Source: Balanoglossus misakiensis (taxonomy: Eukaryota > Animalia > Hemichordata). From it: a DNA stretch of 64,000 nt. The translations under genes were made by a program, and so were the position numbers. The notes beneath the pieces are model-generated. The model was given only the letters and a program-made list of their open reading frames with translations, did no database searches and had not been told where the DNA came from. Shown piece by piece: positions 1-28,597 of the stretch. The stretch is taken from contig CM082597.2 in the NCBI GenBank assembly GCA_040954595.2, forward strand, positions 6,143,244 through 6,207,243. Direction: 5' to 3'. Position 1 is the first letter of the stretch. Each line of letters opens with the position of its first letter.

Positions 1-1286
1 ACTCATGTATGAATGACTACACCAAATTTGATGAAACTTGCTACAGATGTTATGTAACACTACAGAAAGATCTTTAGCAGTGACATGTCTTCTTGTTGAA
101 AATTTAATACTTACTGAACTTTGTAATTTGGGTGATTTGTCCTAGGGGCCTTAAAGACTGGGCTCCATCCATTTCACAATGGTAATATCTTAAGACATGT
201 AAATTGTTTTTAATGTTCATACAAAGACATGCACCTATATGCCATTCATATGCACATCAATTTGATTCACGATTGAGCGATGGCTGCCAGGCAGCAATTT
301 TGTTATGATTTTTTCATATCCCAGGCCAAACTTGTTTCAACCCAATTCATTAAAGTTAGTACATGTATGACATTGGCCTAATGTCGTACATGTACAAGAG
401 CATTGAGCTATGACATACATTGGTACATTGATTTGTTCTGTGATATGATCATATTTCATTCAAAGTTGGTACAAAGACAATTGGCATGCTTAGTTATACA
501 TATTCCTGCTAAATATTTGTGATACAATCCAATATGCCACCTAGTCACCATTTTGTAATGATTTTAAACATGGCATTCATTACAGGTTACTGGAAGTATA
601 TTATACTATATCCTCTCTGATGGTCATATTCCTCATGAAAGTACTGTGCCATACTATACGCAGCCAGAAGGGGTCATGCTAAATGTGCGAAAAAATCAGT
701 TTAATTTGGACCACATATCGAATTTTAAGCAGTTTCAACCCTTGATTGCTGTCATGATCATTGGCGACCAAGAGAGCAGACCGTCTGTTGATATTTGCCT
801 CGAGCAATTTCAGCACCTTCAAGTACAAGGTTATTATATTTATTGTTTCTTTTATTAGCTCCCATGTTCACACACGGGAGCTAATGATATATACCCATGT
901 ATGTCTGTGTGTCTGTGGGCACAACATCTCAATTGCTGGTCACATTGAAACATGCATTATTGTTGATAGCATTTGGACTGATTAGGTTTTGGTGGGCTTA
1001 GTTTGCAAAACATACTGCTTCAAAGTGCTGACTTATAGAAAACAATTTTCTCAAGTAGCAAACAAAAAAGAAAACTTAAGTAAAATATTTGAGGTTAGTG
1101 AGGTCTTCCAAACATAAATTAGTTTTCATGGAAAACTTCAATGCTGATGAGACTGGCATTGTTTAGATATATTAATTCTGTCTTTATCAATGTTTTATAA
1201 GTTGAAAATGATAGTATAGTATGTTTTATGTGTCTGTAACTGTTATACCTAACAGATTTGTTTTGCATGTTTGTTCTATTCTTCAG

Positions 1287-1435
1287 ATTACTTACCAGCA
1301 ACAGTTGAACCAAACAATCAAGAATGTGTGTCAGATAGCAGTAGTGATATCTCTGATGTGATGACAAATCGTTTCCATTTTGAGTCACTAGAAGTGGATG
1401 GGATGGAGCTTCCAACAATTGGTGACATGGCACCT
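1287..1435 (+). CDS. Putative upstream coding exon of the tyrosine-recombinase gene (acidic/Ser-rich linker)
   Basis: Acceptor ttctattcttcag| at 1286/1287 and donor CCT|gtgagt at 1435/1436. Open frame DYLPATVEPNNQECVSDSSSDISDVM...GDMAP. Starts in phase 1 (needs an exon further 5') and ends in phase 0, compatible with 6866-6907 and 10936. Confidence 0.45.
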
Positions 1436-1514
1436 GTGAGTATCATGCTGTTAAAGATACAACTAGCTTATTTACATGCATGTTTGTTACCTGTTTGTAT
1501 ATCAGTGAATACTT

Positions 1515-2357
1515 AGGGGTTATTACACGAAGTTTGGTCGATAACGCATCGTTTTCGAGTGATGTGTCCGTATTTTGACGAGTTGCACAGCAACGATTCA
1601 AAATACGGACACATCACGAGAATGTGACGTGTTATCGACCAAAGTTCGTGTAATTACCCCTTTATCATACGTGCATAGCATGGTGGTCACTCTTTGCGTT
1701 AAAATCGCTGAAATAAGCAAAGGATGACAGCAATCCGATGTTTCTTTTTAGTGACGTAATCTTACAGGACGGTTGTGTTGTGGGTAGATGCAACGTCGAC
1801 CTTGTAACCCAGTGATATCATTCCGCGTAAGAGCTATACCATTTCATTAGAGGGGTTCTAAGAGAATTTAGCACTAAGAATTTTCTGTCTTTAGCGATTT
1901 TTAAAAAGTATATCTCTTCTTTAATGTATATATGTAAGACCAGTAAACTCAGGCAAGGTTTGGGAATAAAATAAATCTGTTTTCGAACGTTAAACCATGA
2001 ACGACCCTTCAGAGTAATATTGTCGTCCGCAGTGACCTTGTGACATGACCTGCTTCCCCGTATTCAGCTGTTTTTGCAGCACAAAATACTGTTTGACTCG
2101 ATCATTCTGATGCATTAACAAATGCAATCTAGATATTTTAGCAGTTAATGTAAGCAGATGAGGGACAGGGTAGACAGGACAAGAAGTGAGTACACTATAT
2201 AGAGCGATAAACAACACTGCAAGCGCAACACGTTGAAGTAGTTCCGGTCACAGTGAAGATATATTCCGTATTTTCACATGTTAAAATACTGGTTCATATC
2301 CATTCTCACTCAGTAAACAAAAGACAAATGTCAATACAGGCATTGCACGTATGATAA
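1515..2357. mobile_element. Non-autonomous element with long terminal hairpin and subterminal inverted repeat (Crypton-like MITE), copy 1
   Basis: 1515-1661 is an imperfect palindrome (aggggttattacacgaagtttggtcgataac...gttatcgaccaaagttcgtgtaattacccct). ttatcatacgtgca (1662-1675) is the reverse complement of tgcacgtatgataa (2344-2357). Second copy at 5947-6536. Confidence 0.7.
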
Positions 2358-2622
2358 TGGCTTATATTGCTAATACTATTGTTGTGACTGGCTTAGTAAT
2401 AGTGCCTGTGCAAGCAACTTTTTTACTCTATCATTGTCAATGACAGTGTTCACACAAATCAAATGTAGTCTGCATTCACAAATTGAACATTTTATCCTTA
2501 GAATTGAAGTTGCCCTCTAAAATAAGCTGACCTCAAAAGTAATGAGCTAAAATACCTCATACTTGACACTCATTAGATTTATATGACCTGCATTAGAGAG
2601 TCCCTAGACTTCAAACATTTTG

Positions 2623-5425
2623 TAACATCGCTGTACCAGCCATGTGAATGGTACAGGGCTGTGAGAGTTTCCCTGTGTACACATCCCTGCACCAGCCATG
2701 TGAATGGTACAGGGCTGTGAGAGTTTCCCTGTGTTAACATCGCTGTACCAGCCATGTGAATGGTACAGGGCTGTGAGAGTTTCCCTGTGTACACATCCCT
2801 GCACCAGCCATGTGAATGGTACAGGGCTGTGAGAGTTTCCCTGTGTTAACATCCCTGCACCAGCCATGTGAATGGTACAGGGCTGTGAGAGTTTCCCTGT
2901 GTTAACATCTCTGCACCAGCCATGTGAATGGTACAGGGCTGTGAGAGTTTCCCTGTGTACACATCCCTGCACCAGCCATGTGAATGGTACAGGGCTGTGA
3001 GAGTTTCCCTGTGTACACATCCCTGCACCAGCCATGTGAATGGTACAGGGCTGTGAGAGTTTCCCTGTGTTAACATCGCTGTACCAGCCATGTGAATGGT
3101 ACAGGGCTGTGAGAGTTTCCCTGTGTTAACATCGCTGTACCAGCCATGTGAATGGTACAGGGCTGTGAGAGTTTCCCTGTGTACACATCTCTGCACCAGC
3201 CATGTGAATGGTACAGGGCTGTGAGAGTTTCCCTGTGTTAACATCGCTGTACCAGCCATGTGAATGGTACAGGGCTGTGAGAGTTTCCCTGTGTTAACAT
3301 CGCTGTACCAGCCATGTGAATGGTACAGGGCTGTGAGAGTTTCCCTGTGTTAACATCGCTGTACCAGCCATGTGAATGGTACAGGGCTGTGAGAGTTTCC
3401 CTGTGTACACATCTCTGCACCAGCCATGTGAATGGTACAGGGCTGTGAGAGTTTCCCTGTGTACACATCTCTGCACCAGCCATGTGAATGGTACAGGGCT
3501 GTGAGAGTTTCCCTGTGTTAACATCCCTGCACCAGCCATGTGAATGGTACAGGGCTGTGAGAGTTTCCCTGTGTTAACATCTCTGCACCAGCCATGTGAA
3601 TGGTACAGGGCTGTGAGAGTTTCCCTGTGTACACATCCCTGCACCAGCCATGTGAATGGTACAGGGCTGTGAGAGTTTCCCTGTGTACACATCCCTGCAC
3701 CAGCCATGTGAATGGTACAGGGCTGTGAGAGTTTCCCTGTGTTAACATCGCTGTACCAGCCATGTGAATGGTACAGGGCTGTGAGAGTTTCCCTGTGTTA
3801 ACATCGCTGTACCAGCCATGTGAATGGTACAGGGCTGTGAGAGTTTCCCTGTGTACACATCCCTGCACCAGCCATGTGAATGGTACAGGGCTGTGAGAGT
3901 TTCCCTGTGTTAACATCGCTGTACCAGCCATGTGAATGGTACAGGGCTGTGAGAGTTTCCCTGTGTACACATCCCTGCACCAGCCATGTGAATGGTACAG
4001 GGCTGTGAGAGTTTCCCTGTGTACACATCCCTGCACCAGCCATGTGAATGGTACAGGGCTGTGAGAGTTTCCCTGTGTACACATCCCTGCACCAGCCATG
4101 TGAATGGTACAGGGCTGTGAGAGTTTCCCTGTGTACACATCCCTGCACCAGCCATGTGAATGGTACAGGGCTGTGAGAGTTTCCCTGTGTTAACATCGCT
4201 GTACCAGCCATGTGAATGGTACAGGGCTGTGAGAGTTTCCCTGTGTACACATCCCTGCACCAGCCATGTGAATGGTACAGGGCTGTGAGAGTTTCCCTGT
4301 GTTAACATCGCTGTACCAGCCATGTGAATGGTACAGGGCTGTGAGAGTTTCCCTGTGTTAACATCTCTGCACCAGCCATGTGAATGGTACAGGGCTGTGA
4401 GAGTTTCCCTGTGTACACATCCCTGCACCAGCCATGTGAATGGTACAGGGCTGTGAGAGTTTCCCTGTGTTAACATCGCTGTACCAGCCATGTGAATGGT
4501 ACAGGGCTGTGAGAGTTTCCCTGTGTACACATCCCTGCACCAGCCATGTGAATGGTACAGGGCTGTGAGAGTTTCCCTGTGTACACATCCCTGCACCAGC
4601 CATGTGAATGGTACAGGGCTGTGAGAGTTTCCCTGTGTACACATCCCTGCACCAGCCATGTGAATGGTACAGGGCTGTGAGAGTTTCCCTGTGTACACAT
4701 CCCTGCACCAGCCATGTGAATGGTACAGGGCTGTGAGAGTTTCCCTGTGTACACATCCCTGCACCAGCCATGTGAATGGTACAGGGCTGTGAGAGTTTCC
4801 CTGTGTTAACATCGCTGTACCAGCCATGTGAATGGTACAGGGCTGTGAGAGTTTCCCTGTGTTAACATCGCTGTACCAGCCATGTGAATGGTACAGGGCT
4901 GTGAGAGTTTCCCTGTGTTAACATCTCTGCACCAGCCATGTGAATGGTACAGGGCTGTGAGAGTTTCCCTGTGTACACATCCCTGCACCAGCCATGTGAA
5001 TGGTACAGGGCTGTGAGAGTTTCCCTGTGTTAACATCCCTGCACCAGCCATGTGAATGGTACAGGGCTGTGAGAGTTTCCCTGTGTTAACATCGCTGTAC
5101 CAGCCATGTGAATGGTACAGGGCTGTGAGAGTTTCCCTGTGTACACATCCCTGCACCAGCCATGTGAATGGTACAGGGCTGTGAGAGTTTCCCTGTGTAC
5201 ACATCCCTGCACCAGCCATGTGAATGGTACAGGGCTGTGAGAGTTTCCCTGTGTACACATCCCTGCACCAGCCATGTGAATGGTACAGGGCTGTGAGAGT
5301 TTCCCTGTGTACACATCCCTGCACCAGCCATGTGAATGGTACAGGGCTGTGAGAGTTTCCCTGTGTTAACATCGCTGTACCAGCCATGTGAATGGTACAG
5401 GGCTGTGAGAGTTTCCCTGTGTTAA
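2623..5425. repeat. 56-bp minisatellite, ~50 copies, five unit variants
   Basis: Invariant 42-nt core cagccatgtgaatggtacagggctgtgagagtttccctgtgt plus a 14-nt variable part (acacatccctgcac, taacatcgctgtac, taacatccctgcac, taacatctctgcac, acacatctctgcac). Explains all repetitive minus-strand ORFs at 2579-5471. Confidence 0.98.
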
Positions 5426-5782
5426 AGGCCGCCGTTGGATAAAAAAGGAAGCTCAACTCGGTGGTAATCATAATGCCGTTTGACTAACAACAGATAACAA
5501 ACAGACTCTTCGCTCCGTGAAATAGGCGAAAAAGGGTCACAGCAAAAAGAATTTTGCCACACAATGACAATATATAGCTTTATAAACACACATGGCATAT
5601 AGTTATCAACAAAATAGTACATGAGCTATCGAAATAACGAAGATTTTAGAAGAAATGGGGTTTCATCGTTTTTCAGAACAATAGACCGCGTCCCTTCGGA
5701 AACAATGGCCACGCCAATCGAACAACACCCGATCAACACCTTGCGTAAGCTGGATCCCGGGCCATGCCACGGCGGCCTTTAA
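5422..5782. mobile_element. TTAA-flanked MITE (Kolobok-type ends)
   Basis: TTAA-aggccgccgt at 5422 and acggcggcct-TTAA ending at 5782. Removing it restores the satellite sequence gtgTTAAcatc. Confidence 0.8.
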
Positions 5783-5946
5783 CATCATCATGTACGCGGT
5801 ATAAAGATGCAATGTATATGAAGTGTGAATTTGTTAAAACAGACATTCCCGTGACAGCTGTACATATGAGAAAGGAGGACATTTTCAGGACAAAAAGATA
5901 AATGACAAGTAGGTTTTGCTTGATACCAAGTACCTACATAATATTT

Positions 5947-6536
5947 AGGGGTTATTACACGAAGTTTGGTCGATAACGCGTTGTTTTCGAGTGATGTGTC
6001 CGTATTTTGACGAGTTGCGCAGCAACGAGTCAAAATACGGACACATCATGAGTTTCATAATTTTATTTTATTTTAAAACCGTTTTCTTGTTTTTTTTTTC
6101 TTGTATATATGTAAGACCAGTAAACTCATGCAAGGTTTAGGAATAAAATAAATCTGTTTTTCGAATGTTAAACTAAACTTTGAACTACCCTTCAGAGTAA
6201 TATTGTCGTCCGCAGTGACCTTGTGACATGACCTGCTTTCCCGCGATCAGCTGTTTTTGCAGGACAAAATACTGTTTGACTCGATCATTCTGATGCATTA
6301 ACAAATGCAATCTAGATATTTTAGCAGTTAATGTAAGCAGATGAGGGACAGGGTAGACAGGACAAGAAGTGAGTACACTATATAGAGCGATAAACAACAC
6401 TGCAAGCGCAACACGTTGAAGTAGTTCCGGTTACAGTGAAGATATATTCCGTATTTTCACATGTTAAAATACCGGTTCATATCCATTCTCAGTAAACAAA
6501 AGAAAAATGGCAATACAGGCGTTGCACGTATGATAA
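5947..6536. mobile_element. Internally deleted second copy of the 1515-2357 hairpin element
   Basis: Near-identical to 1515-1620 and 1925-2357; same tgcacgtatgataa right end; part of the right hairpin arm and about 300 bp of internal sequence are replaced by a T-rich tract. Confidence 0.8.
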
Positions 6537-6865
6537 ATGGGATTAATATCAGAAAATTTCCACCAGTCCTGAACCAGTGTTGGTTCAAGCCAAGTCCAAC
6601 AACTTAAACACATTAGGTTAATGGAAATGGAAATGGTGCAACTTTACCTTGATGCAAGTGGATTGCAAACTGAGCAGGTTGGAAATAGAACAAAATCATA
6701 GAACACAGTTACATGTACATGTACTCTGAGCAAGAAAATTGTAGTCTTTTGCATTCTGTACTTCCGTAATTACTAAAAGTGAAATGTATGTTTATCTGTA
6801 GTTAAAAAGATTTTAATAGAGTTTGTGATTTAGTGAAATCTGTTTGCCTTAATTGCTGTTTGTAG

Positions 6866-6907
6866 ATGAACAGAGCATACAGAGCATACTCTCTGCCAGT
6901 ACTACCG
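6866..6907 (+). CDS. Putative 42-bp exon of the tyrosine-recombinase gene
   Basis: ttgctgtttgtag|ATGAACAGAGCATAC...CTACCG|gtagga; 14 codons (MNRAYRAYSLPVLP), phase 0 to phase 0, joining 1435 to 10936 in frame. Confidence 0.35.
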
Positions 6908-9388
6908 GTAGGAAGTGTACAACTTGTTCCTCCAAGTTCCCTAGTAGGCTCAAGTATAGTATCATTATCATGGTCATCAGCTGCTAGATATGTACGTGGC
7001 AGTTCCGGCTACCCGTCAAGTATGCAAAGTAGGTCATTAAAGTAACTGTACCTTTGATGAAATTTCATCAGAGAAGTAATTATAAGTAGCTATCTGAAAT
7101 TGTCATTTTAAAATTTAAAAAAAATGATTTAATACAGATTCATTATTTCCTGATTTGAAACCCTTTCCATGACAAAATCTGGAAGCAAAGTTTTTTGACA
7201 CAACGCTGAATGACTCAGGACCATGCAGTGACTGAAACATCCATGATGCTCTAAATATTCATAATTAGTTTGTGCTCATGGCTTCCTTGTCTTTAGTGAA
7301 GGTTAGGTCGGAATACTGTATTTTTTGAGTCGCCCCTTAAAGTTTTAATGTCTCCTAAAAATTGAAAGGCCTTTATATTATAACATGGCCCCAAAATTCA
7401 GGTTTATAGCTACATAAAATAACTGATTTAACTGAAAATTAAACTGCAAATTCAATTAGCTAAAGGTACAACATGTACCTTCAGTTGGTCAGATAGACAG
7501 AGGCAAACATGAAAGAAAACCACAAAGACCAAGCAAATGTAAATATTTGTTTATCAATACAATCCATCAGCCACTGCCAATGAAAGCATAGATAGCTTTA
7601 CTTCTTTTTACAGTGATTGACACTGACTTCTCCCCTATGGTTTGTTTTCCTGTAGGCAGCATTATGCAATCACAATTGCAGCATCAACAGCATCAGCATC
7701 AACCAAATCAACCTTTCCCTTCAAATGCCTTTCCACCTTGGTTATACTATATTTGGTTTGGAACAAACACTTGTTTTGTCATCGCCATCATCATTATCTT
7801 CGGGTGGTATTTACTAACTTAAAAAACAAGAAGAATCAAATGAATTCCAGGTGAGCGTAATAAAAAACAAACCAAAAGTCATTCAAGGCTCAAAATTATA
7901 AGTAGAGTGCTGCAGAGATCCCCTAAAAAAATCGAGCACCTGACATGGTGGTACCACATTTGAGTCATATATTATTTTAACCATTAGGGTCTTAGGAGTC
8001 TGAAAAGGCATGATGACATTGTTAAATCCCATGGTGAGCTGAGAACACCACCTTTTTTTAAAATTGGTATATTTCACAAAATCTGCATATTTTTATGTAG
8101 TAAACAGTGCGCACCAACAACACCAGAATGCTGTACATGGTAATACAGTCGCCGCCGTTTTATCGGGACACCACAGGGGCAGACAATTTATCCTGATTCA
8201 CCGGCTGTCCCGATTATGCGGCTGGTATAAATATGGCCGCCCCGCCCACACAATACCAGTGTTGATTCACGCACACGATGTACACACTTCATACAACCAC
8301 GGTTACTAGAAGTAACCGTGATCACAATGTAAAACTGCACCACTAAAAGGTTGGTGTCTTCGTTATTCGGATTTTTTCATCAAAATTTAAAGTGGTGCTT
8401 CGACTTCAGGTAAAAAAACAAACACTAGCAGTTGAAAAGAAAAAGCTAGGCTGTACAGACGTGTTGAAGAAAAACACAAGGTCATGTTATGTTGATTGAC
8501 AAGGGAACGTACGTCTTGGGGAAGGGGCGTGGCCTGATCTGGCTAACACGTTCTACATGTGCGTGACCTTTACAGGCCACGGCAACGGACATCGGCAGCA
8601 GTAAGGCCGTGAAAATCGCTGTTGAATTTTTTTTGTCGCCCCGTATTGTTTTGAGGTGTCAATTCTTACACTTAGCAACTCATTCTCGAGAATAAGATCC
8701 TTTGAATGCGGAAAGCTTTGGTGTTGTGATCCTTGTTCAGCTACCACCTCCCAGGCCGTTCTAACAGCTGGGTTGTTGACGCATACACAGCTGTAAACGG
8801 GACACAGTGTGCCGCAAATGTCCATCTCGGCGTTGGTAAGGGGTGTGAAAATTTATCCATTTGAGGGGGTAACTTTTTTGCCGCCTAAATTTGACTATTT
8901 TCTCGTGAGTTTTCCTTCCATTTTGCAGTTTTGTCCATGGCCATGTTAGAGGATTTCACAGATATATTGTTGTAGTTTTCAAGACTTTCTAGTAGACATG
9001 CAGATGTGTTGTCATATAAATATGATGTCAATTTTATCAATACTAAGGTACAATCAAATTTACTTCAACACATGCACTATGCAGTAAAGAATGGACTCGC
9101 ACAATTATTTGTTTTCAAATTGTCATACTGAAAGACCACCCCTATTAGAAACTAGTGTAACTTTGACTCATCAACCTGAGGCCCCTTGGCAAACTAAATC
9201 ATATTCTTACTTTACATGGCATTGCCTGCCAAAAGCATACAGTATTAAACTTTTGAAATTTGTCAGTTATTTTCAACTGCAGGGTAGATTTGGTTTACTG
9301 GTATTTGTATGCGTATTTTCTACAAATTTCTTCCTAAGATAACTTGAACCGGAGATTTCATGTTTTTTGAATCAAAGATTTCATGTTT

Positions 9389-9541
9389 TATATTTTTTGA
9401 AAACTCGGTGTTTTGATAAACCTTTCAAGAACCCTGTTAGTCCCCGCGGACGAATGATGTATCCATTGTTTGCATGTCTATTCTTTTGCGATACAATCCA
9501 ATATGGCCAGCAGGCAGCCATTTTGTGACGATTTTTTCATA
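9389..9541 (+). repeat. ~150-bp direct repeat, left copy (partner 15088-15240)
   Basis: aaaactcggtgttttgataaacctttcaagaaccctgttagtccccgcggacgaat...gcagccattttgtgacgattttttcata recurs with few mismatches at 15088-15240. Confidence 0.9.
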
Positions 9542-10881
9542 CATGCGTAATTGGTTGGTTTTGTTATCAATTGTCTTATTTGTATCCCTCTGTGTGTATT
9601 TAAGCGATAGGATAAGTCTATCCTTCAAACTTTGCTGTCTTATATTTGCAATTTTGTCAGTTGGGTAGCTTTTTCATGAAATATAATACAAATATCATTA
9701 ACACAAAAGTTATTTTTCATACCTTTAAACACCAACCCAATTCAAAAATTAAATATGTATTTAATTTGATGAGCTGTCATTGTGAATATTATTGTCCCAT
9801 CTATGGCAGTATATAAAGTCTGGCATTGAAAAAAAAGGAGAAAACAAGGAAAAACAAAATCCATTGTCAGAAGTCAATTACAGTTACTAAATCCAAGTTG
9901 CTATGAATGAAAACCATGTGAAGATATCAACTTTTAGACTTTGTTGTAATATTTCTACTTTCTTAAAAATGAGTTTTCGTAAATTGACAAGCACAAAACA
10001 AGAACACTCAGTTGCGTACAGTCCTGTAATAATACACCATATCTTAGTGAAAATTACCAGAATCCTGTAAATCATGCAAACACTGGTTATGTTGCCAGCC
10101 ATAAAGAAACTTTCAAAGTAAGGTATGGAGCCTACTTACACCTGTTTTGCCAAAACAAAAGATATTTTTTTTTAAATGAACACCTTAGTTGGTCACCACT
10201 TGCCTTCAAAAAGTACAGTATTTTGTAGCACATTGAAACTTTTATCATAAAATGTATTTAGTTTCAACCTCTTTTCTCTATCTGAAATTTCTAAAAGTAC
10301 TTTTGTTTAAAATTAATAAATGGTTATTTTAATGCATAGATTTCTCAGAAATATGTGGAGCTGATTAAGTATTTAGAAAGCAAACACTTGTGTGGACATA
10401 TCAGAGAGACTTGTGGGTAATTTAATGAACTCTGGACTTGTCAATATTGGTTTTCTACTATTTATTGCCTCTGCTGTAATTGATGACTCAAAATGAAAAC
10501 AGTCTCAGTATATTGCTACCACATATGCACATAACTCATTTCACTACTCTGTTAAAACTGATATCACAATGAAAGTGGGGACAATGACTTGTTGGCTTTA
10601 GGTTGCTTGTATTCCCATTGCCCTCATAGTAGACTACATGACATACATTAATTGGTGGCTCAAAATGAAATCAGTCACAGTACATTGCTACCACATATAT
10701 GCACATATTTAATTTCCCTGCTCTGTTATAACACAGTTAGTAGACCCTTTCAGTTAGGAAACTCACTGTGTGAGGACTGACTGAATTGAATGTGTTTTGC
10801 AGAATGCATAAGGCATTAGACTTTTGGGCCTATAGTCAGTTAAGTATGGTGTCGCTTAACAAGTATGTGACATGAGATGAC

Positions 10882-13686
10882 ATGAAAAACAGTTTCTTCA
10901 TAGATCATGCAATTGATATTTATTTCACTTTACAGCTGCAAGTTTCTAATCACATCTCACAAGAGCTGGAAGATGCCCGACCCATCTCTTCAGACCTACA
11001 AGTTTCCAGACCTATCTCTCCAGAGCCACAAGTTTCCAGACCCATCTCTCCAGAGCTACAAGTTTCCAAACCCATCTCTCCAGAGTTACAAGTTTCCAGA
11101 CCCATCCCTCCAGAGCTACAAGTTTCCAGACCAATTTCTGCAGAGATACAAGTTTGTACACCCATCTCTTCAGAACGACAACTGCCACTTTCTATACCCA
11201 TCTCTCCAGAAATTAGGGGTGGATACACTGTAGAGGAAGCTCAAACAGCGCAACAGCAGCAAACTGGTAATACAGAACCAAACCAAACTGAAATTATACC
11301 AAACCACCTTCCTGAGCAGACAAGTGAGCAAAAAAGTCATGTGACAGAAGACAAACAACACAAATCTCAGCAATCCATAAGAGCGAGTAAAAGTAGACCA
11401 TATGTAGTATGTAGTACTAAATTATCAACACAGAAAAGAAAGTGGGACAAATATGCATATTGCTTATATTGCAACAAAAAGCAACAGAAACTAGTACGAC
11501 ATCTACAGCGAAAGCATGGAAATGAAAAAATGGTTGCGCAGGCTATGGCTCTACCACAACGACACGAAAGAAATAGATTGTGGTTAAGAATGAGGAATCT
11601 TGGTAACCATTCTCACAACAAGAAAGTGTACTGTGGACAGTCTGACGATTTCATCGTCCGCAAGAGGCCGAGGTTTGGCAGTAGACAATCCATGACAAAA
11701 TATTTAGCATGCTTCAGGTGCTATGGGTATTTTAGCATTAAATCATTGAAAATGCATGCTTGCCCAAATAAACCTGAAGAATCTACAAGTTCCCCTTCCC
11801 AACATGTAAAGAAAGGGAGAAGGTTACTTCCTTTCAAAGATGATGTATCGGGTAACCTTGCAGAAGTAATAAGCAGGATGAACCTTGACAGTATTGCTCT
11901 TGTTGTCAGAAATGATTCTGATATTTTGAAAGTGGGACAGAATGAACTTGACAAAAGCAACTCTTCGAAGAAAGAAGACCTTTGTCGCGAGAAAATGAGA
12001 ACACTTGCTAAAGTTTTGCTACAGGCAAGACAGCTTGATCGTAACATAGCTCATGCAGCTGATCTCGTGTCACCACGGTCGTTTCAAACTGATGTCAAAG
12101 TTGCACGAATGATGTCAGGCTATGATGATGCTACGCAAACACACAGGGCATATTCAACTGCCCTAAGGATTGGTTTTGCTCTTCGTGATCTAGCAATGGT
12201 TGTAAGAAGTGGTTATATCACTGATGAGTTGCACGAGCGGACCAGAGAGGTTGATGATTTCCTGAAATTGCGAGAAACAGATTGGAGTGTCAAGGTAACG
12301 GCATCAGCTCTACGGCAAGGTAAGAAGTTGAGCTGGGAGAAGCCAAAACTCATTCCTCTAACGGAAGACACTGTTGCATTCAACAGACATCTGAACAAGA
12401 AAGAGAAAGAAATCAAAGAGGAAATAAAAAGAACTGGACACATGACTGCTGATACATACAAACACTTATCTACTGTCACACTTGTGCAGGTGATACTGTT
12501 CAATAGAAGACGGCCAAGAGAAGTTGAAGAACTGCGCATCAGTGATTATGTCCATCAAGTAGCTGAGAAAAAGCCCATCCATGACGAAGTCTTCAAATCA
12601 TTAACTGTGTCTGAAAAATCAGCATTAGATGGCCTAACTTTAATCATGGTCAGAGGGAAACGGGGCAGAGGTGTACCTATTCTCTTTACAGAGAACACTG
12701 TGCAAAGTATGAAAATGGTCATAACATACTTGCAGGAGAAGATGCCACAGAGTGAATATGTCTTTACAAGAAGTACACCTGGTGCCAGTACTCCTATCAG
12801 AGCCTATGATGCTATCAGAAGGTTAGCGAATGAAGCTGGACTTAAGCACCCAGAAACTATCACAAGTACCAAATTGAGGAAACACCTGGCAACACTTTCT
12901 CAAATTCTTTGTCTAAAGAAACATCAGCTTGAGCAGTTGGCAAACCATATGGGTCATGATGTGGCCATACATCGAGAATATTATAGACTTCCCCAGGAAA
13001 CCATGCTACTAGCAAAAACAAGCAAACTGCTGTTTTTGGCAGCGGAGGGTAGACTACATGAGTTCCAGGGCAAATCACTTGATGATATTCACATTGATTC
13101 TCATGAGGCAGTTTCAATTGATGCTGATGAAGATGAGGAGTGTATGGAATCTGAAAACGAAGAAACAGTGTGCATGGAAAAGGGCAGTTCAGCAATCTCT
13201 ACACACAGAAAAAGGCAGAACTCGCATCAAGAAGATGATCCAGAAACTTACCCGCCCCTGCGAAAACAACAATGTACAACTTCAAGAGATGAAGACTTAC
13301 CAGTACAACAGTTACGAAGATATGTCAAGTGGACGAAAGAAGAGGTTGATTTTTTAATGAAACAACCCCAAATAATCAAACATATAAAGGCAAAATCAGC
13401 CCCTGGAAAGAAAACCTGTATGCAAGTCATTGAGTGCAGCAATGGTATGTTTGGTCATAAAAGTTGGACAGAAATAAAAAACAAAGTCCATAACATAAAT
13501 AACTGTGAAAAAAGTAAACTGAAAAGAATCCAAAACAAAAGAGCTGTCACCAAATCAGCAACCAAAGTCTGTCCAGCAAACCACCAGCGAGCTGTCACCA
13601 AATCAGCAACCAAAGTCTGTCCAGCAAATCACCAGCGAGCTGTCACCAAATCAGCAACCACAGTCTGCCCAGCAAACCACCAGTGA
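10882..13686 (+). CDS. Tyrosine recombinase (phage-integrase fold, Crypton-like) with Cys/His zinc-binding motifs and C-terminal Myb/SANT-like domain
   Basis: 934-codon intact frame; probable splice acceptor tttcactttacag| at 10935/10936 (phase 0). Catalytic-type motifs in integrase order: LFNRRRPREV (Arg, ~12511), VRGKRGR (Lys, ~12658), TSTKLRKH (HxxR position, Arg ~12877), LANHMGHD (His, ~12955), HREYY (Tyr, ~12976). N-terminal YCLYC...RHLQRKH and CFRC...HAC; C-terminal KWTKEEV...KSWTEIKNKVHN. Confidence 0.9.
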   Translation: MKNSFFIDHAIDIYFTLQLQVSNHISQELEDARPISSDLQVSRPISPEPQVSRPISPELQVSKPISPELQVSRPIPPELQVSRPISAEIQVCTPISSERQLPLSIPISPEIRGGYTVEEAQTAQQQQTGNTEPNQTEIIPNHLPEQTSEQKSHVTEDKQHKSQQSIRASKSRPYVVCSTKLSTQKRKWDKYAYCLYCNKKQQKLVRHLQRKHGNEKMVAQAMALPQRHERNRLWLRMRNLGNHSHNKKVYCGQSDDFIVRKRPRFGSRQSMTKYLACFRCYGYFSIKSLKMHACPNKPEESTSSPSQHVKKGRRLLPFKDDVSGNLAEVISRMNLDSIALVVRNDSDILKVGQNELDKSNSSKKEDLCREKMRTLAKVLLQARQLDRNIAHAADLVSPRSFQTDVKVARMMSGYDDATQTHRAYSTALRIGFALRDLAMVVRSGYITDELHERTREVDDFLKLRETDWSVKVTASALRQGKKLSWEKPKLIPLTEDTVAFNRHLNKKEKEIKEEIKRTGHMTADTYKHLSTVTLVQVILFNRRRPREVEELRISDYVHQVAEKKPIHDEVFKSLTVSEKSALDGLTLIMVRGKRGRGVPILFTENTVQSMKMVITYLQEKMPQSEYVFTRSTPGASTPIRAYDAIRRLANEAGLKHPETITSTKLRKHLATLSQILCLKKHQLEQLANHMGHDVAIHREYYRLPQETMLLAKTSKLLFLAAEGRLHEFQGKSLDDIHIDSHEAVSIDADEDEECMESENEETVCMEKGSSAISTHRKRQNSHQEDDPETYPPLRKQQCTTSRDEDLPVQQLRRYVKWTKEEVDFLMKQPQIIKHIKAKSAPGKKTCMQVIECSNGMFGHKSWTEIKNKVHNINNCEKSKLKRIQNKRAVTKSATKVCPANHQRAVTKSATKVCPANHQRAVTKSATTVCPANHQ
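10936..11170 (+). repeat. 30-bp coding tandem repeat (SRPISPELQV, ~7 copies) in the recombinase N-terminus
   Basis: Unit agtttccagacccatctctccagagctaca, in frame with the ORF. Confidence 0.9.
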
Positions 13687-14258
13687 GCTGTCACCAAATC
13701 AGCAACCACAGTCTGTCCAGCAAACAGCCAGTGAGATGTCACCAAATCAGCAACCACAGTCTGTCCAGCGAATCACCAGTGAGCTGTCACCAAATCAGCA
13801 ACCACAGTCTGCCCAGCAAACCACCAGTGAACTGTCACCAAATCAGCAACCACAGTCTGTCCAGCATATCACCAGTGAGCTGTCATCAAATCAGCAACCA
13901 AAGTCTGTCCAGCAAATCACCAGTGAGCTGTCACCAAATCAGCAACCAAAGTCTGTCCAGCAAACCACCAGTGAGCTGTCACCAAATCAGCAACCACAGT
14001 CTGTCCAGCAAACAGCCAGTGAGATGTCACCAAATCAGCAACCACAGTCTGTCCAGCGAATCACCAGTGAGCTGTCACCAAATCGGCAACCACAGTCTGT
14101 CCAGCAAATCACCAGTGAGCTGTCACCAAATCAGCAACCACAGTCTGTCCGGCATATCACCAGTGAGCTGTCACCAAATCAGCAACCACCGAGTGTCCAG
14201 CAAACAGCCAGTGAGCTGTCACCAAATCAGCAACCAGTCTGTCCAGCAAATCACCAGT
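13541..14258 (+). repeat. 48-bp minisatellite (~15 copies) overlapping the recombinase stop codon
   Basis: Unit gagctgtcaccaaatcagcaaccacagtctgtccagcaaatcaccag(c/t). The first three units are translated as RAVTKSATKVCPANHQ before TGA at 13684-13686. Confidence 0.97.
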
Positions 14259-15087
14259 CAGTGAGTTACGTACTTTGTTTTTTCTAAACTTGTGAAATAC
14301 AAATTGTAATGAAGAGCAATTAGGTTGAATCTGATAATTCCAGTAATAGACTGTTTGGTAAATTATATAGGTATTATGTAGGCTTGCCTCCCTGGCTTAT
14401 TTCACACAACAGTTGTATAATCTCCACAACAGGTTATCACTGATATAAGGTTTCAAACTAAGTGCTCTTCACTAGACTCTGTATTTAAAACGTCAAGATA
14501 ACATAATAATATTAGACTGCACAATGCTGATCTCCAATCATTCTTTTGTGTGTGATTTATTCGTTTTATAAACATTCACTCATTGTAGTCATTGGCATCT
14601 GGTATTTCCTTACCTTTCATCAATCAACATTTGTGTTGACAGTGTTCTTCAAATGAAAATAATAAGCAGATTATCAGAATGGTATTATCAGATTGGTATC
14701 ACTTCTTTATTACATGTATACTGCTTTATGTGAAGGGTAGGCTCGAGTATGACTATTTTAGAGTAAGTAATTGTGAAAGTCCATTACTACATGTGCTGAT
14801 TTAAGTTTTATGTTACCTTAGTATTGATAAAATTGATGTTGTCATGTGTCTATGGATCAGTGGAATAGAATGTCTTGGAAACTACACTATTCATAATATA
14901 TTGTCAAAACATGCAAATCGTGAAATAGTTCTTTCGGTCAGATGTCTGAAACTGCAATCACTGATCACAGTGTTTTCATATTAGGTACATGTACACATAT
15001 CATTTGGAAGTGTCTTCATGATGCTCTTCATTTTACTATTTGAAGCTCTGAGTAAATTAGAAACTGCAAAGTTTTTACCAGACAATA

Positions 15088-15240
15088 TATATTGTTTAAA
15101 AACTCGGTGTTTTGATAAACCTTTCAAGAACCCTGTTAGTCCCCGCGGACGAATGGTGTATCCATTGTTTGCATGTCTGTTCTTTTGCGATGCAATCCAA
15201 TATGGCCAGAAGGCAGCCATTTTGTGATGATTTTTTCATA
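15088..15240 (+). repeat. ~150-bp direct repeat, right copy (partner 9389-9541)
   Basis: Direct sequence match to 9389-9541. Confidence 0.9.
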
Positions 15241-15549
15241 TTTGGAGTTTTTGTTCATTGATACACAGTGTTTTCTCCATTTTATACTTTGGGGGGATTT
15301 TCGCCCCTTTACTTGAAATCAAGGGGGGGAAATATTTTATCAAGGGGCACCTTGTTTCATTTGCATATTCACGAATTGTGAATGAGGTAAATGAGAAATA
15401 GTTTTGAAAAGTAATATTAGTGGTTTTTATATAGTAATAAAGTACTTCAGACACATTATTTACCTTTCATCTCATTTATTTAGAGACAAAAACATGCTCA
15501 TTTTGACATGTCAAACTGGGATCATTTAGACAGTCATTTCTGGCTCCCA

Positions 15550-15868
15550 CCCTGGAAAATACGTCTAGTCTTTGCACTTTGCACTATTCCACAAGAGGAG
15601 GGCCCTCAACAAGTATAGTGAGCAGGCGATTTAAGGAATTCTCTTCCAATCCATTTCTGAGGGAAGTTTTGACCTTGTTTTGGGCCGAAAAACCCCTCTC
15701 ACAGATTGCAGTATTAACTGGCAGTACAACCAAATTTGGTACTGTGTGCTTATGATTAATAGTAATCAACTTCCACGGGTAAGTAAAATTGTCACAGGGA
15801 TATGCCTGTTGCATAACCAATGTTTTTAACAAAAACCACTCATGTCTGGTGTTCTCAGGGTTAATCAT
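15550..15868 (-). pseudogene. Degenerate hAT-family transposase fragment (C-terminal dimerisation domain)
   Basis: VVLPVNTAICERGFSAQNKVKTSLRNGLEENSLNRLLTILVEGPPL matches the hATC motif LPxxxAxCERxFSxxxxxKTxxRNxL. No intact upstream frame. Confidence 0.8.
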
Positions 15869-16459
15869 AGCATTGCATCAGTGTTGTCAATTATACAGCA
15901 AATAGTGCAGAACAATCAGCAAGTTTGCTGGGTAATCGACCTGATTGATGAGGGGAATAGGGCAGCACTTGTATGTTGCTGTAAATGTCTTGCAGGTTGA
16001 TAGAATGGGCGAGTGTGAGATAAAATATCCAAAACGATTGTGAGAATTCTCATCGCAGGTCTTTGGTGTGTGAGATTCTTTTTCTCACATGACCTAAAAT
16101 GCGGTATATTCACCCTAGAAACACAGAATCATTGTCAGACTGCATCAGTGGTTGTCCAACTTCGTGGTACATTTATTATTCTGTGTTTCTAAATATAATC
16201 ACAAATTTCTCCCCGTTCACACACGTACACTGCTCATGGACATGTTACACGTCAACAAAAGTGATCTTTTTGTCAATGTTCAATTTTATGGAAAATTCTG
16301 TCGTTCTTGTGTCTTTCACCAGGGAGAAATGACATTTCCGAAGTCATCATGACACTGTTGTCTGCTACTGTACTGAGACCTAATAAATTTATAGTTCTGG
16401 TCCTACAGAGCACCTATCCAACCCTGCCTGTGGCCAGAAATGTGAGAAAAACTGCTTTT

Positions 16460-17725
16460 CCTCTGTTTAATTTCACCACCATGGAGTTAAAGAATTCCAT
16501 TGTTTTATTTATGGTTTGATCTCTCCAGAGAAAACAGACAGAGGTCTGTTTTTGTATTGTCATGCTACAAATTCCTGTTGTTGAGGTGATGATCTGATCG
16601 AGTAAAACAAGTATAACCTGTTGACTTTAATATGAAAACATACTATTAAATAGAGACTTTCCAATGTAAATGGCCAGTGAAGTGGAGACATATGTATGTA
16701 CTCGCAATATATGGTGGGGAGTTTAAAATGAAAACATCTTTTTAAAAGGGGACATATTTTTTACACCATGTGTTTGGGGGACTTTAATCTGAATACACAA
16801 TGAAGAGTGGGGACATGCAAAAACTATGTTAGGTAATCAACCAGATTTGTGAGGGGAATACGGCAGCACCTGTATGTTGCTGTAAATGTCTTGCAGATCT
16901 GCTGTTCCTTTGTTTAATTTCACAACCATGGAGTCAACAATTCCATTTTTTCCATGGCAAAGTTAAATGGCCTCGCCAGAGAAAACAGGTCTGTTCTTTG
17001 CAGTGCCATGCTACAAAACAAATTCCTATCATTAAGGTGATGATCTGATCGAGTAAAACAAGTATAACCTGTTGACTTTAATATGAAAACATACTATTGA
17101 ATAGAGACTTTCCAATGTAAATGGCCAGTGAAGTGGAGACATATGTATGTACTCGCAATATATGATGGGGAGTTTAAAATGAAAACATCTTTTTAAAAGG
17201 GGACATGTTTTTTACACCATGTGTTTGGGGGACTTTAATCTGAATACACAATGAAGAGTGGGGACATGCAAAAACTGTTAGGTAATCAACCAGATTTGTG
17301 AGGGGAATACGGCAGCACTTGTATGTTGCTGTAAATGTCTTGCAGATCTGCTGTTCCTTTGTTTAATTTCACAACCATGGAGTCAACAATTCCATTTTTT
17401 CCATGGCAAAGTTAAATGGCCTCGCCAGAGAAAACAGGTCTGTTCTTTGCAGTGTCATGCTACAAAACAAATTCCTATCATTAAGGTGATGATCTGATCG
17501 AGTAAAACAAGTATAACCTGTTGACTTTAATATGAAAACATACTATTAAATAGAGACTTTCTAATGTAAATGGCCAGTAAAGTGGAGACATATGTATGTA
17601 CTCGCAATATATGATGGGGAGTTTAAAATGAAAACATCTTTTTAAAAGGGGACATATTTTTTACACGATGTGTTTGGGGGACTTTAATCTGAATACACAA
17701 TGAAGAGTGGGGACATGCAAAAACT
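16460..17725. repeat. ~450-bp tandem repeat, ~2.7 copies, rich in GG(G/A)GAC motifs
   Basis: gatctgatcgagtaaaacaagtataacctg at 16591, 17042 and 17491 (spacing 451 and 449). Confidence 0.95.
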
Positions 17726-18680
17726 TGGTGTCACAAGATTTCTTAATATTTTGACACTTAGTAGTTTGCTGTGGGATTATTTTATTATGTGAAGTCACTT
17801 TAAACAATTTTATGAAACCAGTTTTCAAGTTTATGTAGTATTGCATACCACCTTAATGGTTAAACGACTGTAAAATTGCTCTGCTTTCTTCAGGAGCAGC
17901 CGAGTACTGGGCTTTAAAAATGAGCATTTATCATTGCAAAATATGTTTGGATGATTATGAATATGAATATGAAGTAACTTTAGGTCCAGAGGGTAACTCC
18001 AAAGCTGTTCATAATTAGCCCTCCAGCTGAAAAAGGTACTCTCTAGCTCTAAAACCTCAAATTTTACCCTCTCCCCACACCATTTTAACTACTCCCCCCT
18101 CCTGCGGCGTACAGATTTTGTCAACGCCCCTGCCCTGAAAAAGTGCTATTTTTTCCTCCCTGTAAAATCGTTTTGATGATTGTTTTCCCTTTGAACGCGT
18201 TCAATGTTCCCACAAACTTACTGCTGCCTGCAAAATAGGCTATGGCCCGTCCTTCCATTGTTTCTCACCATTGGTAATCAAGTGATTTCTACCCTCCTAA
18301 AAAAATGTTGCCTGCAAATTAAAAACACATGTCGCCCTGCCCGGGAGATAATTTTGAAAAATTCCCGTCCTTAAATAAAATATGAATAGCTTTTCCAATG
18401 AATAACTCTGTTTGCTGCACCTGTGTCTTTCTTTTCTGTGTGCTTTATTTTCTGTATGTTTATGGCATGTATTTTGTGAATTCAAAATGAGAACACACTA
18501 TTACATGGAGACATATGTATACTTTGTTAAACTGGGGAACTAAGTAGGGAAATAAAATATGAAAACATCAATTAATTCGAGGAATTAAAAATTGGTACCC
18601 TTATAACCTCTGAGATCCATATTGGTCCCACTTTCTATTCACTTATATGTGTGAAGAGCCGGTCCCTAAAATGCTGACAA

Positions 18681-19027
18681 TGTATGTATGTATGTATGTA
18701 TGTATGTATGTATGTATGTATGTATGTATGTGTTTTTATTGCAAGATTGTGTACCTACCTATATCCTAGCTGACGACACACAACAATTGCATCGGTATTG
18801 CCGAAGCTGTCATCACAGACTGTTCCCCACTGATTATTGTGGTATATTTCTACTCGGCCTTCAGACGAGTGCGAGCCATCTACCAATCGAATATGACCTT
18901 CGCCTGTATAAATGACAATTTATATTGCTACATAACACACGATTTTAAAACAACAATGTGTATCAAATTGAAAATGTTTACAGAATTCTTTGAATAATGC
19001 ACCGGCTACAAATTGAATGTAAAATTT
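18681..19027 (-). repeat. (TATG)n microsatellite plus ~300-bp segment duplicated at 24105-24403
   Basis: tgtttttattgcaagattgtgtacctacc...caaattgaatgtaaaattt is almost identical in both places. On the minus strand it reads AATAAA followed by a (CATA)n tail, like a retroelement 3' end or a duplicated 3' UTR. Confidence 0.9.
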
Positions 19028-19763
19028 GACCGACGTCAAAGTTGTCAAATCGTGCGCGAGACATGGGCAGACGACAATATCTGCACGTACACGGTACAGC
19101 CTTACAGTATTAGGATGCAGTCTCTCAGACCAAACGATGATAACATTCATGATTATTTAACTATTATTTTTGTAATTATTTTAATCGCTGCGTCATTTTT
19201 CATCGGCCAACACTGTATTTGGAGGTCATCAGTTTTCGCCAAAAATGTGGAAACCCACTACATTTCCGTTGGACTGCAACACCGGCAGAACGGGTCAAGT
19301 TGGCGAAATATGTCCGAAAGCCAGTGCGGCAGGCATTTAAAAAGTTGGGTGCACACAATACATCCCGTTTCTGTGAAAATGTTGTAAGCATAGCACCATC
19401 AAAGAGAGAATTCACCAAATTCTACGATGACATTCGTTGTGTGAAGGTAAGTGAAAGATTTGCTTTGTTTATGGGCCGAGGGCGCTCAAAATGTAAACAA
19501 CAGCTGTGTGCCATTTGACCTCTGATCTTTAGGGGAAAGGACGTCGAGAAGCTTTCTTCTTCCGTAGTACACTTGCGAACGGGAAATCACGAAACCTAAT
19601 AGGTTTTGTCCCTTGTGATCTTTTTTTTTTGAGGGGGGGGGGCGTTCTATTTCCGTCCACTCTACACGTACATGACGTACGCTACGTCTGCTTATCACGT
19701 GACAATGACGCTACGCGTACTGATCGAACGTATTTACGTGTAACTAAACCTCTCTAGTGTCTA

Positions 19764-25453
<5,690 letters not shown>

Positions 25454-25917
25454 CTTGCTCGATAGCTTGAGAACTAAGTGCCCCAAAGTTAAATAATATT
25501 GACTTAATATTGGCTCTTAAGTTCGACGTTAAAGCTCCCCAAGTGTGTAGAATTTAGCCGAAATGAGGTTGAGAAGGGTCGGATTCTCCTTTAAGAACCG
25601 AAACTGACAATATTTCGTGAATATTGAATTAGCCGAAAATGCCCGAAATGGGTCAGGGGATTATGTATTATGTATTCGGAGTTATCTTTCGAGAAATGAT
25701 AATCACTTTGTAAAAGCTGATCCACATCTCTCAGCTGTTTTTGGGTTGGAATCACCGTCACTATTGCCGTCGTTGTCGTGGAAATCGCCATCATGTTTCC
25801 TTGTTTCAGACATTTACTAGCATTCTTGGCCTTAATATTTGGCATATACCTGTCAGATCGTTGTCCCTTTCTTTAATATTGCGGTCACTTCTTCGCAGAG
25901 TTGAAACATATGTACGA

Positions 25918-28250
25918 CCTAAGTGTTATTTAAGACGCCGTTGTCAAATATGCGATGAAATTTCACCCGAAACTGCCCGTGGGGTTTAATACAAGGAAAT
26001 ACATTGGTTTCGAACAATACAATGCGTGTGGTTGTCTTTGCTTTTTAAAAAATGCCCCAAAAATCAAAGTCCTACACTTTTGTCTCGTATTTTGCTGGAG
26101 TCGAGGCATCTTCAGATTATTCTCTTTAGAAATACTATAAGTAATGGTGAAGTTCTCTGGGCTGCTTTTCAAGACAGAATCACAGAAACACAAGTCTTAC
26201 ATTCGCCGTGTGTAAAGGAAATTCTGATCAGATTTGTTTCCTTACTTACAATCTCTTACCACTGTGACAGTCACAATAGTAAAAATTCAAAATGTTTCAG
26301 AGACACTATTTGCCTAAGGTAAACACAGAGAATTAGTCCTTTGAGTCGCGTTGTGTCCACACACACAAAGTTTATGTATAGGTGCTGAGGCTCGGCCCCA
26401 TTTACCAGGTTCAGACAGGGAAAAATTTGAGACACTATTTCCCTATGGTAAACACAGAGAATTAGTCCTTTGGGTCGCTTCTGTCCACACACACAAAGTT
26501 TATGTATAGGCGCTGAGGCTCGGCCCCATATACCAGGTTCAGACAGGGAAAAATTTGAGACACTATTTGCCTATGGTAAACACAGAGAATTAACCCTTTG
26601 AGTCACCTTGTGTCCACACACACATAGTTTATGTATAGGCGCAGAGGCTCGGCCCCATATACATTGTACCAGGTTCAGACAGGGAAAAATGTGAGACACT
26701 ATTTCCCTATGACAAACACAGAGCATTAATCCTTTGAGTCGCCTTGTGTCCACACACACAAATTTTATGTATAGGCGCTGATGCTCGGCCCCTTTTACCA
26801 GGTTCAGACACATAAGTGTTATTTAAGACGCCGTTGTCAAATATCCGATGAAATTTCACCCGAAACTGCCCGTGGGGTTTAATACAAGGAAATACATTGG
26901 TTTCGAACAATACAATGCGTGTGGTTGTCTTTGCTTTAAAAAAAATGCCCCAAAAAGCAAAGTCCTACACTTTTGTCTCGTATTTTGCTGGAGTCGAGGC
27001 ATCTTCAGATTATTCTCTTTAGAAATACTATAAGTAATGGTGAAGTTCTCTGGGCTGCTTTTCAAGACAGAATCACAGAAACACAAGTCTTACATTGGCC
27101 GTGTGTAAAGGAAATTCTGATCAGATTTGTTTCCTTACTTACAATCTCTTACCACTGTGATAGTCACAATAGTAAAAATTCAAAATGTTTCAGAGACACT
27201 ATTTGCCTAAGGTAAACACAGAGAATTAGTCCTTTGGGTCGCTTCTGTCCACACACACAAAGTTTATGTATAGGCGCTGAGGCTCGGCCCCATTTACTAG
27301 TACCAGGTTCAGACAGGGAAAAATTTGAGACACTATTTGCCTATGGTAAACACAGAGAATTAATCCTTTGAGTCGCGTTGTGTCCACACACACAAAGTTT
27401 ATGTATAGGCGCTGAGGCTCGGCCCCATTTACTAGTACCAGGTTCAGACAGGGAAAAATTTGAGACACTATTTGCCTAAGGTAAACACAGAGAATTGGTC
27501 CTTTGGGTCGCGTTGTGTCCACACACACAAAGTTTATGTATAGGCGCTGAGGCTCGGCCCCATTTACCAGGTTCAGACAGGGCAAAATTTGAGACACTAT
27601 TTGCCTATGGTAAACACAGAGCATTAATCATTAGAGTCGCCTTGTGTCCACACACACAAAGTTTATGTATAGGCGCTGAGGCTCGGCCCCATATACCAGG
27701 TTCAGACAGGGAAACATTTGAGACACTATTTGCCTAAGGTAAACACAGAGAATTAATCCTTTGAGTCGCAGAAACACAAGTCTTACATTCGCCGTGTGTA
27801 AAGGAAATTCTGATCAGATTTGTTTCCTTACTTACAATCTCTTACCACTGTGATAGTCACAATAGTAAAAATTCAAAATGTTTCAGAGACACTATTTGCC
27901 TAAGGTAAACACAGAGAATTAGTCCTTTGGGTCGCGTTGTGTCCACACACACATAGTTTATGTATAGGCGCTGAGGCTCGGCCCCATATACATTGTACCA
28001 GGTTCAGACAGGGAAAAATGTGAGACACTATTTCCCTATGGTAAACACAGAGAATTAGTCCTTTGGGTCGCTTCTGTCCACACACACAAAGTTTATGTAT
28101 AGGCGCTGAGGCTCGGCCCCATTTACCAGGTTCAGACAGGGAAAAATTTGAGACACTATTTGCCTATGGTAAACACAGAGAATTAATCCTTTGAGTCGCG
28201 TTGTGTCCACACACACAAAGTTTATGTATAGGCGCTGAGGCGCGGCCCCA
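25918..28250. repeat. Composite tandem array: ~129-135-bp monomers interleaved with duplicated longer blocks
   Basis: Monomer gagacactatttgcctaaggtaaacacagag...gaggctcggccccatttaccaggttcagacagggaaaaattt. Block 25920-26300 repeats at 26813-27195 and partly at 27769-27885. Confidence 0.95.
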
Positions 28251-28597
28251 TAGACAATGGGTTGCGGGAAGATGTTCATATGATTAACGCACATATATCG
28301 CACATGCGCATAAGAATGTCTCGGGTAAAACACTGGCCAGATTTGAGGAGCAGGGTCCGCCAGCCTACCTCTAGGCAGGGAACGCTCTCATTTGGAAATG
28401 GCTCCTGGCACAGAACGCTTATATGCATGATGGTATTTACTGTTACGTTACCCCTTTACCATGCTAAACTGTTTTAAAAGGCCAAAGTGGTTCGGTTGCA
28501 CTGTTCAGGTAGAAAGAAAATAGGGATTAGTGGGACACGAGTTTCCATAGGGAGGAATAACGACCACAGTAACTTCACGGATAAAGTAAACGCCAGT

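Follow-up and report, generated by a model that had tools for sequence, protein, structure and literature searches.

The DNA analyzed here is a 64,000-nucleotide stretch of contig CM082597.2 of the hemichordate Balanoglossus misakiensis (the window), which carries on its plus strand, at positions 10882-13686, an uninterrupted frame of 934 codons encoding a protein, P0001, that resembles tyrosine recombinases. The frame and all the motifs that an earlier note on this DNA had quoted from it are present, and the frame is no assembly artefact, because a contig from sequencing run X1 covers positions 10696-13530 with two differences only, one upstream of the frame and one synonymous inside it, although X1 may itself be the run from which the window was assembled. 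The first 18 codons end in a pyrimidine-rich tract and an AG at 10935 and are probably intron, and the recombinase frame is probably the large last exon of a longer gene, as judged from the nucleotide sequence (Table 1). At the other end, the frame reads through for its last 48 codons into a 48-base-pair (bp) tandem array; across this array (13518-14287) both other plus frames are open for about 250 codons, and one of them encodes Ser-Pro-Gln-rich repeats reminiscent of the N-terminal linker of P0001. Introns are normal among relatives of the recombinase: at related locus L009 a SET domain is encoded by separate exons upstream. The C-terminal helix-turn-helix (HTH) tail forms a separate downstream exon at L008, L017, L027, L034, L035, L041 and L068, and lies within the main exon at L030, L040, L050 and in the window copy. 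The earlier note had overlooked the probable last-exon status of the frame, along with the huge size of the family and the N-terminal SET domain of many of its members.

P0001 matches the Pfam family Phage_integrase (PF00589) at residues 574-693 (E 3.7e-6, 27.3 bits against a cut-off of 27.1), and a sequence search of solved structures with the protein found no recombinase. We predict a tyrosine-recombinase fold, with core-binding and catalytic integrase domains, from a structure model of residues 170-885 (alignment of 87 sequences, mean predicted local distance difference test score (pLDDT) 87); a second model of the catalytic part, built on 13 sequences, was poor (pLDDT 68). The fold comparison that the earlier note had proposed gave integrase-fold matches on the first model: all six Foldseek matches at E<=0.001 are XerH, followed by XerA, IntI, Cre and Tn1549 Int, and a wider fold search returned XerA (Z 14.1, root-mean-square deviation (rmsd) 16.1), XerH (Z 13.1, rmsd 4.4 over 303 aligned residues), IntI (Z 12.7, rmsd 3.5 over 262 residues) and Cre (Z 10.9). 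These matches cover approximately residues 344-719, corresponding to the core-binding and catalytic domains, and topoisomerase IB cores reach similar scores on the catalytic part. P0001 shares with XerH/XerA, IntI, Cre and lambda Int the canonical R-K-R-H-Y order and the nine-residue spacing from His to Tyr, but is only 9-16% identical to them, and its family differs from them by a Thr in the active-site motif, zinc fingers, an HTH tail and an optional SET domain. We collected 347 related proteins (isoforms included), 330 of which span all catalytic sites; R544, K593, R666, H692 and Y701 are all kept in 295 of the 330, and the His of the HxxR motif, which the earlier note had reported as replaced, is a Thr (T663) in P0001 and in 301 of the 330. 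Judging from these counts, the Thr is a family trait and not decay of the window copy. The HREYY motif is likewise as described, although the family-conserved Tyr is the second one, Y701.

Both Cys/His clusters pointed out by the earlier note are nearly invariant among the relatives: C194 is kept in 284 of 285, C197 in 284 of 286, H207 in 287 of 291 and H212 in 260 of 294 for zinc finger 1, and C277 in 307 of 308, C280 in 305 of 308 and H292 in 311 of 312 for zinc finger 2. The clusters bear a weak likeness to the Sgf11 and Ros zinc fingers (E 0.07-0.12), in a region barely probed by the fold search. The tail, previously called Myb/SANT-like, is a three-helix HTH that may be of either the Myb or the homeodomain type: its structural matches are homeodomains and one telomere-repeat-binding protein (Z approximately 7), and a Pfam scan of the tail found no match.

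The family is broad. A first search found 94 relatives among 7,994 scored candidates, the named ones coming from echinoderms (the best, at 37-46% identity), fish, molluscs, nemerteans, insects and one hydrozoan, and later searches added hemichordate, isopod, Clytia and zebrafish (si:ch211-235f1.3) members; the cnidarian relatives are from Hydractinia and Clytia. At E<=1e-30 a family profile matches 4,737 of 1.84 billion clusters at 50% identity, fragments included. In a midpoint-rooted tree of 110 cores (six redundant isoforms and cores shorter than 400 residues being left out), P0001 falls in a clade (support 0.998) in which every named member is an echinoderm protein, SET-bearing sea urchin and sea cucumber proteins among them. 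The ratio of nonsynonymous to synonymous substitution rates is 0.11-0.17 in three of seven locus pairs, the remaining four being saturated. In Alosa, four loci, each on a scaffold of a different length, encode proteins that are 84-97% identical over their whole length, with one pair reaching 98.8% over 755 residues, and these sequences speak for mobility within the family. The cores of P0041, P0049, P0050, P0055 and P0074, from herring, cichlid, loach and carp relatives, are nearly identical (branches 0.00-0.11), which suggests fish-to-fish horizontal transfer of this subfamily.

An N-terminal SET domain is present in 51 of the 347 relatives and in 42 of the 88 that have at least 300 residues ahead of the first zinc finger. 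The best solved match of the SET domain of a sea cucumber relative, P0010, is the H4K20 methyltransferase KMT5A/SET8/PR-Set7 (E 1e-25, compared with only 4e-9 for MLL), from which it differs in having ND where SET8 has NH. Other domains carried by relatives are OTU, BRCT, Chromo and THAP. The window has no SET domain: a SET profile from 11 relatives gave a best E of 0.33 against it, and tblastn of the window with the 94 relatives gave no match outside the frame at E<=0.01. We regard SET as optional in the family, because it is absent from 79 of 80 related loci, including the 5.7 kilobases (kb) upstream at L040.

Some fish relatives appear to have been domesticated. Among 18 long gene models scanned, seven fuse the recombinase to ZMYM/QRICH1 domains and one to ATF7IP, all such fused proteins being predicted gene models. 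In four percomorph fishes (P0223, P0240, P0242, P0335) a tandem recombinase pair precedes a ZMYM-type gene, with SET between the tandem domains in three of the four models; these pairs form two sister clades that have lost catalytic residues, and piranha and knifefish sequences form a separate catalytically dead clade. The catalytically dead fusion models comprise the four percomorph proteins, P0318 and P0238, and P0250 (ZMYM-type, QRICH1-domain and ATF7IP genes). Each of the 13 ZMYM/QRICH1-linked or long-model domains lacks at least one residue of R-K-R-H-Y. The recombinase appears to have been captured at least twice, independently, by genes that stem from an older Crypton or include one. 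The window copy, unlike the ZMYM-fused copies, keeps the full catalytic set. Its domestication, which the earlier note had offered as an alternative, is disfavoured because the known domesticated relatives lost these residues.

The likely right end of the element lies where a host gene is interrupted. An SRCR gene on the minus strand runs from about 25.5 kb downward; its first-half exons number four and its second-half exons three, and none of these exons lies left of 18680. Positions 18680-19027 (349 bases) match 24055-24403 at 99% identity. The intron of the 24-kb copy crosses a TGTA tract and continues to a second-half exon, whereas that of the 18.7-kb copy crosses (ATGT)13 and then enters unrelated DNA; the element is thus likely to end at about 18680, breaking the SRCR exon series at a TATG repeat. 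Each unit of a 449-bp array situated 1-2 kb inside this proposed end contains three GGGGAC motifs, a number reached in none of 2000 shuffles. The pattern of a GTCC motif plus repeat occurs once within the window, but the shuffle control for it destroys microsatellites and overstates significance; the chance of meeting a GTCCY motif in a 6-base slot is more fairly put at about 0.9%. By analogy with related loci, the layout at 18625-18731 would represent the right end and the microsatellite its target. No left end of the expected kind lies in the window, as positions 1-10880 contain no TG/TATG tract of at least 14 bases, and a search for a long terminal inverted repeat in 14260-18760 found none. 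Two interspersed-repeat pairs are nested in or near the element (1917-2357/6094-6536 and 9389-9541/15088-15240); the second, a 153-bp direct repeat around the frame, was considered as a long terminal repeat and rejected as a piece of an interspersed repeat. The region also holds a weak hAT dimerisation fragment at 15584-15877 on the minus strand (E 0.009) and a probably intronic 56-bp tandem array at 2621-5422 (50 copies, 96% alike).

Comparable ends occur at related loci, 80 of which were kept from 127 in a metagenome scan. A GTCC motif followed after 13-21 bases by a TATG/TG tract was found at five of the 80 (L022, L027, L030, L034, L040), always on the strand of the gene and downstream of it, with spacers of 18-19 bases; L035, chosen after the fact, has the same spacing with a different motif. 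Ends track the enzyme tree in that related enzymes share them (L030/L040; L034/L017/L027), with 79% identity over 85 bp for L030/L040 and 89% over 276 bp for L034/L017, and an inverted internal GGGGAC cluster is also found in L030 and L040. The element of L040 lies between two TG tracts 13.6 kb apart, with TATG(TG)n flanks and unlike ends, and judging from this layout it appears complete at 13.6 kb; the recombinase gene is its sole long frame, beside a broken nested reverse transcriptase insertion. The start of the L040 contig repeats the final 9 bases of the right end and leads into a TG tract (1-43 compared with 13636-13676), as would a tandem head-to-tail copy, a circle joint or an assembly join.

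Read depth on long single X1 contigs is 86-116 on the element side and 25-70 on the host side, and three of these contigs show 8 differences from the window in 6,760 bases. In run X2, depth is erratic (80-576 on the element side, 74-445 on the host side). The depths hint at a few near-identical copies in X1, a hint not counted as evidence, as depth is not copy number.

Table 1. Features of the recombinase locus and the proposed element end, in window coordinates.
Feature	Position	Strand	Remark
Candidate upstream exon, acidic/Ser-rich, ending in phase 0	1287..1435	+	One of four candidates from a crude splice-site scan
Minimal proposed extent of element	5430..18679	+	Inference; left end probably beyond window start
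Open frame: repeat-rich linker, two zinc fingers, tyrosine recombinase, acidic linker, HTH tail	10882..13686	+	
30-bp tandem array, 8.3 copies	10934..11181	+	Encodes N-terminal linker (residues 19-100)
Likely terminal exon; acceptor AG ending at 10935, phase 0	10936..13686	+	Inferred from sequence
Zinc finger 1, C2H2 type (C194, C197, H207, H212)	11461..11517	+	
Zinc finger 2, CCHC type (C277, C280, H292, C294)	11710..11763	+	
Core-binding and catalytic tyrosine-recombinase domains, residues 344-719	11911..13038	+	R544, E547, K593, T663 (for His), R666, H692, Y701
Three-helix HTH tail (homeodomain/Myb-type), residues 810-884	13309..13533	+	
48-bp tandem array, 15 copies	13541..14258	+	Recombinase frame stops in third copy
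449-bp tandem array, 2.6 copies, three GGGGAC per unit	16567..17725	+	Candidate internal binding array
Two subterminal GTCC motifs, at 18625 and 18662	18625..18667	+	Inverted relative to internal array
(ATGT)13 microsatellite, likely target	18680..18731	+	Junction at 18679-18686
SRCR first-half exon (host), flanking element end	18756..18865	-	No second-half partner anywhere to its left

The remainder of the window is not simply decayed DNA, as the earlier note had put it, since it contains SRCR, trypsin, C-type lectin, sulfotransferase and VASt-domain exons. The SRCR gene (18680-25516, minus strand) is of a secreted type, with a signal-like start, a coiled coil containing a 117-bp repeat, and SRCR domains split over two exons each, and is interrupted at 18680; upstream of it lie nested 129-bp tandem arrays (26177-28259), whose 500-bp spacer is duplicated. 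C-type lectin and trypsin exons (30487-33285), an intronless sulfotransferase (36573-37505) and VASt-domain exons (46338-58625), which we take to be GRAMD1-like, follow, all on the minus strand.

Among known systems, the element most resembles by description CryptonV, an animal DNA transposon with a tyrosine recombinase and microsatellite insertion that is described from cnidarians, reportedly by Kapitonov and Jurka in Repbase Reports in 2012. According to PMC8869645 (here and below, PMC numbers refer to excerpts of the papers) some CryptonV families are said to insert specifically in microsatellites; PMC6681497 lists CryptonV-1_NV, and the excerpts of PMC5753468 and PMC4455052 only name CryptonV. 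We found the microsatellite trait at the right end only, at the 18680 junction and at the five related loci. The Crypton-V-like mobiliser proposed in the earlier note thus stands as far as the recombinase fold, the catalytic residues, the lack of a visible reverse transcriptase or RNase H and the right end at a microsatellite are concerned, with the likeness to CryptonV itself drawn from description only. The label Crypton-H, given by RepeatMasker to three zebrafish families (PMC10942377), is an equally tentative name for this family, and PMC13465017, PMC9004415 and PMC7599744 give labels only. The SET fusion, the paired zinc fingers, the HTH tail, the His-to-Thr change and the motif arrays were not found in the literature searched, which left out most subscription papers and Repbase Reports, nor were the family motifs found in the supplements of PMC13465315, PMC6681497 (12 of 13 files) and PMC10871703. 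CryptonA and CryptonI are likewise animal transposons with a tyrosine recombinase only and without terminal inverted repeats, which vertebrates have repeatedly domesticated (PMC3212892), the domesticated DUF3504 genes being ZMYM2/3/4, QRICH1 and KCTD1 (PMC3212892); they have no C-terminal domain, unlike P0001 with its HTH tail. Membership in CryptonA/DUF3504 and in Starships was rejected, as neither P0001 nor 41 relatives match PF12012 or PF11917 (DUF3435), a comparison that also draws on PMC13465315, and the named relatives are animal. DIRS/Ngaro was rejected as well, in line with the earlier note, since no reverse transcriptase or RNase H frame lies near the gene and none is intact in L040; the long frames of the window include no reverse transcriptase/RNase H and no DDE transposase, the left part of the element lying beyond it.

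We consider it likely that the frame is the last exon of the recombinase of a large Crypton-type transposon, which would be excised as a circle and reinserted into TG/TATG microsatellites. Following established tyrosine-recombinase strand chemistry, four recombinase subunits would pair both element ends, Y701 would attack to form a 3'-phosphotyrosine, and two strand exchanges via a Holliday junction would release a circle with a short TATG/TG core at its joint. This core would then recombine with a matching tract, after which repeat would flank the element on either side, with no fixed duplication. The zinc fingers and HTH tail might bind the GTCC/GGGGAC arrays in the manner of lambda integrase at its arm sites, and the SET domain, in members carrying one, might methylate H4K20 at the element or the target; both are guesses. 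Circle excision and integration is the model proposed for Cryptons (PMC3212892).

A number of observations weigh against this interpretation. In the enzyme, the HxxR His is missing, and residue roles were assigned from conservation, spacing and the canonical order. At the right end, the pattern was widened to accommodate the window, whose spacer measures 15 or 19 bp, depending on the reading, versus 18-19 in relatives and whose two motifs are 37 bp apart versus 26-28, and the contigs do not bridge the (ATGT)13 microsatellite. Only four of the 30 loci with at least 2 kb past the gene match the end pattern (five with L035), the remainder showing none in the sequence covered; the five matching loci represent about three lineages, and motif-plus-TG units also stand apart from ends (L005, L045-L049), so that some ends could be small non-autonomous elements near the gene by chance. 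High-copy repeats are nested inside the element, and neither the window nor the contigs contain its left end, an empty site or another copy. Run X1 contains no second contig of at least 80% identity on the frame and no pile-up at the end, and therefore no large family of diverged copies and no derivative elements.

The nested repeats and the absence of diverged sister copies in X1, together with the probable introns and a frame that runs into a tandem array, suit an old and now immobile insertion, or a gene undergoing domestication, that has been kept intact and copied only along with the SRCR region, whose flank is itself duplicated. We regard this explanation as unlikely: the window copy keeps all catalytic residues, of which the 13 ZMYM/QRICH1-linked or long-model domains are missing some, the end motifs are still in place, and introns are usual in the family. 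A further explanation, which we hold to be highly improbable, makes the recombinase the integrase of an endogenous DNA virus or another, far larger element, with the remaining genes beyond the left edge of the window. Such a reading draws on the left end being out of view and on the telomere- and 28S-specific recombinases of nimaviruses, which share with P0001 an animal context, C2H2 motifs, an incomplete residue set (the nimavirus enzymes keep five of seven key residues), simple-repeat targets and, in some cases, multiple exons (PMC10871703). Nimavirus genomes, compared by description only, measure 265-580 kb (PMC10871703), however, and no viral genes are seen in the window or in L040, which appears complete at 13.6 kb with the recombinase as its sole long frame; two viral-contig scans gave no relative, and the viral structure matches are only generic integrases at 8-21% identity. 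Hardly any credence is due to the idea that the gene is mobile while the 18680 junction belongs to a separate small element or rearrangement, so that microsatellite targeting would not be a property of this copy. Standalone motif-plus-TG units such as L005 and a spacer unlike that of relatives fit it, but contig depth stays low and even as far as the junction, in contrast to that of the small high-copy elements in the host flank, and the internal inverted GGGGAC array matches those of L030 and L040.

A bolder proposal, which we consider doubtful, is that these elements form an undescribed superfamily of animal transposons, distinct from the catalogued CryptonV and numbering thousands of families from cnidarians to fish, in which a Thr-variant tyrosine recombinase integrates elements of 14 kb and more into TG/TATG repeats, many members carry an active H4K20 methyltransferase that sets the chromatin at the landing site, and fish have at least twice tamed the enzyme into ZMYM genes, which in turn arose from an older Crypton. 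The window copy is one among thousands, and Repbase may already list the family as CryptonV, so that the find is less surprising. Within the family, a SET8-like domain joined to a transposase would offer an uncommon example of a transposon-borne histone writer. An enzyme able to insert over 13 kb into TG repeats, which are plentiful and mostly neutral, would be a candidate large-insertion tool. With its intact enzymes, definable ends and simple target, the family makes the circle-and-integrate model of animal Crypton movement and target choice directly testable, zebrafish included. The family also accounts for many gene models annotated as 'uncharacterized' or 'KMT5A' in animal genomes.

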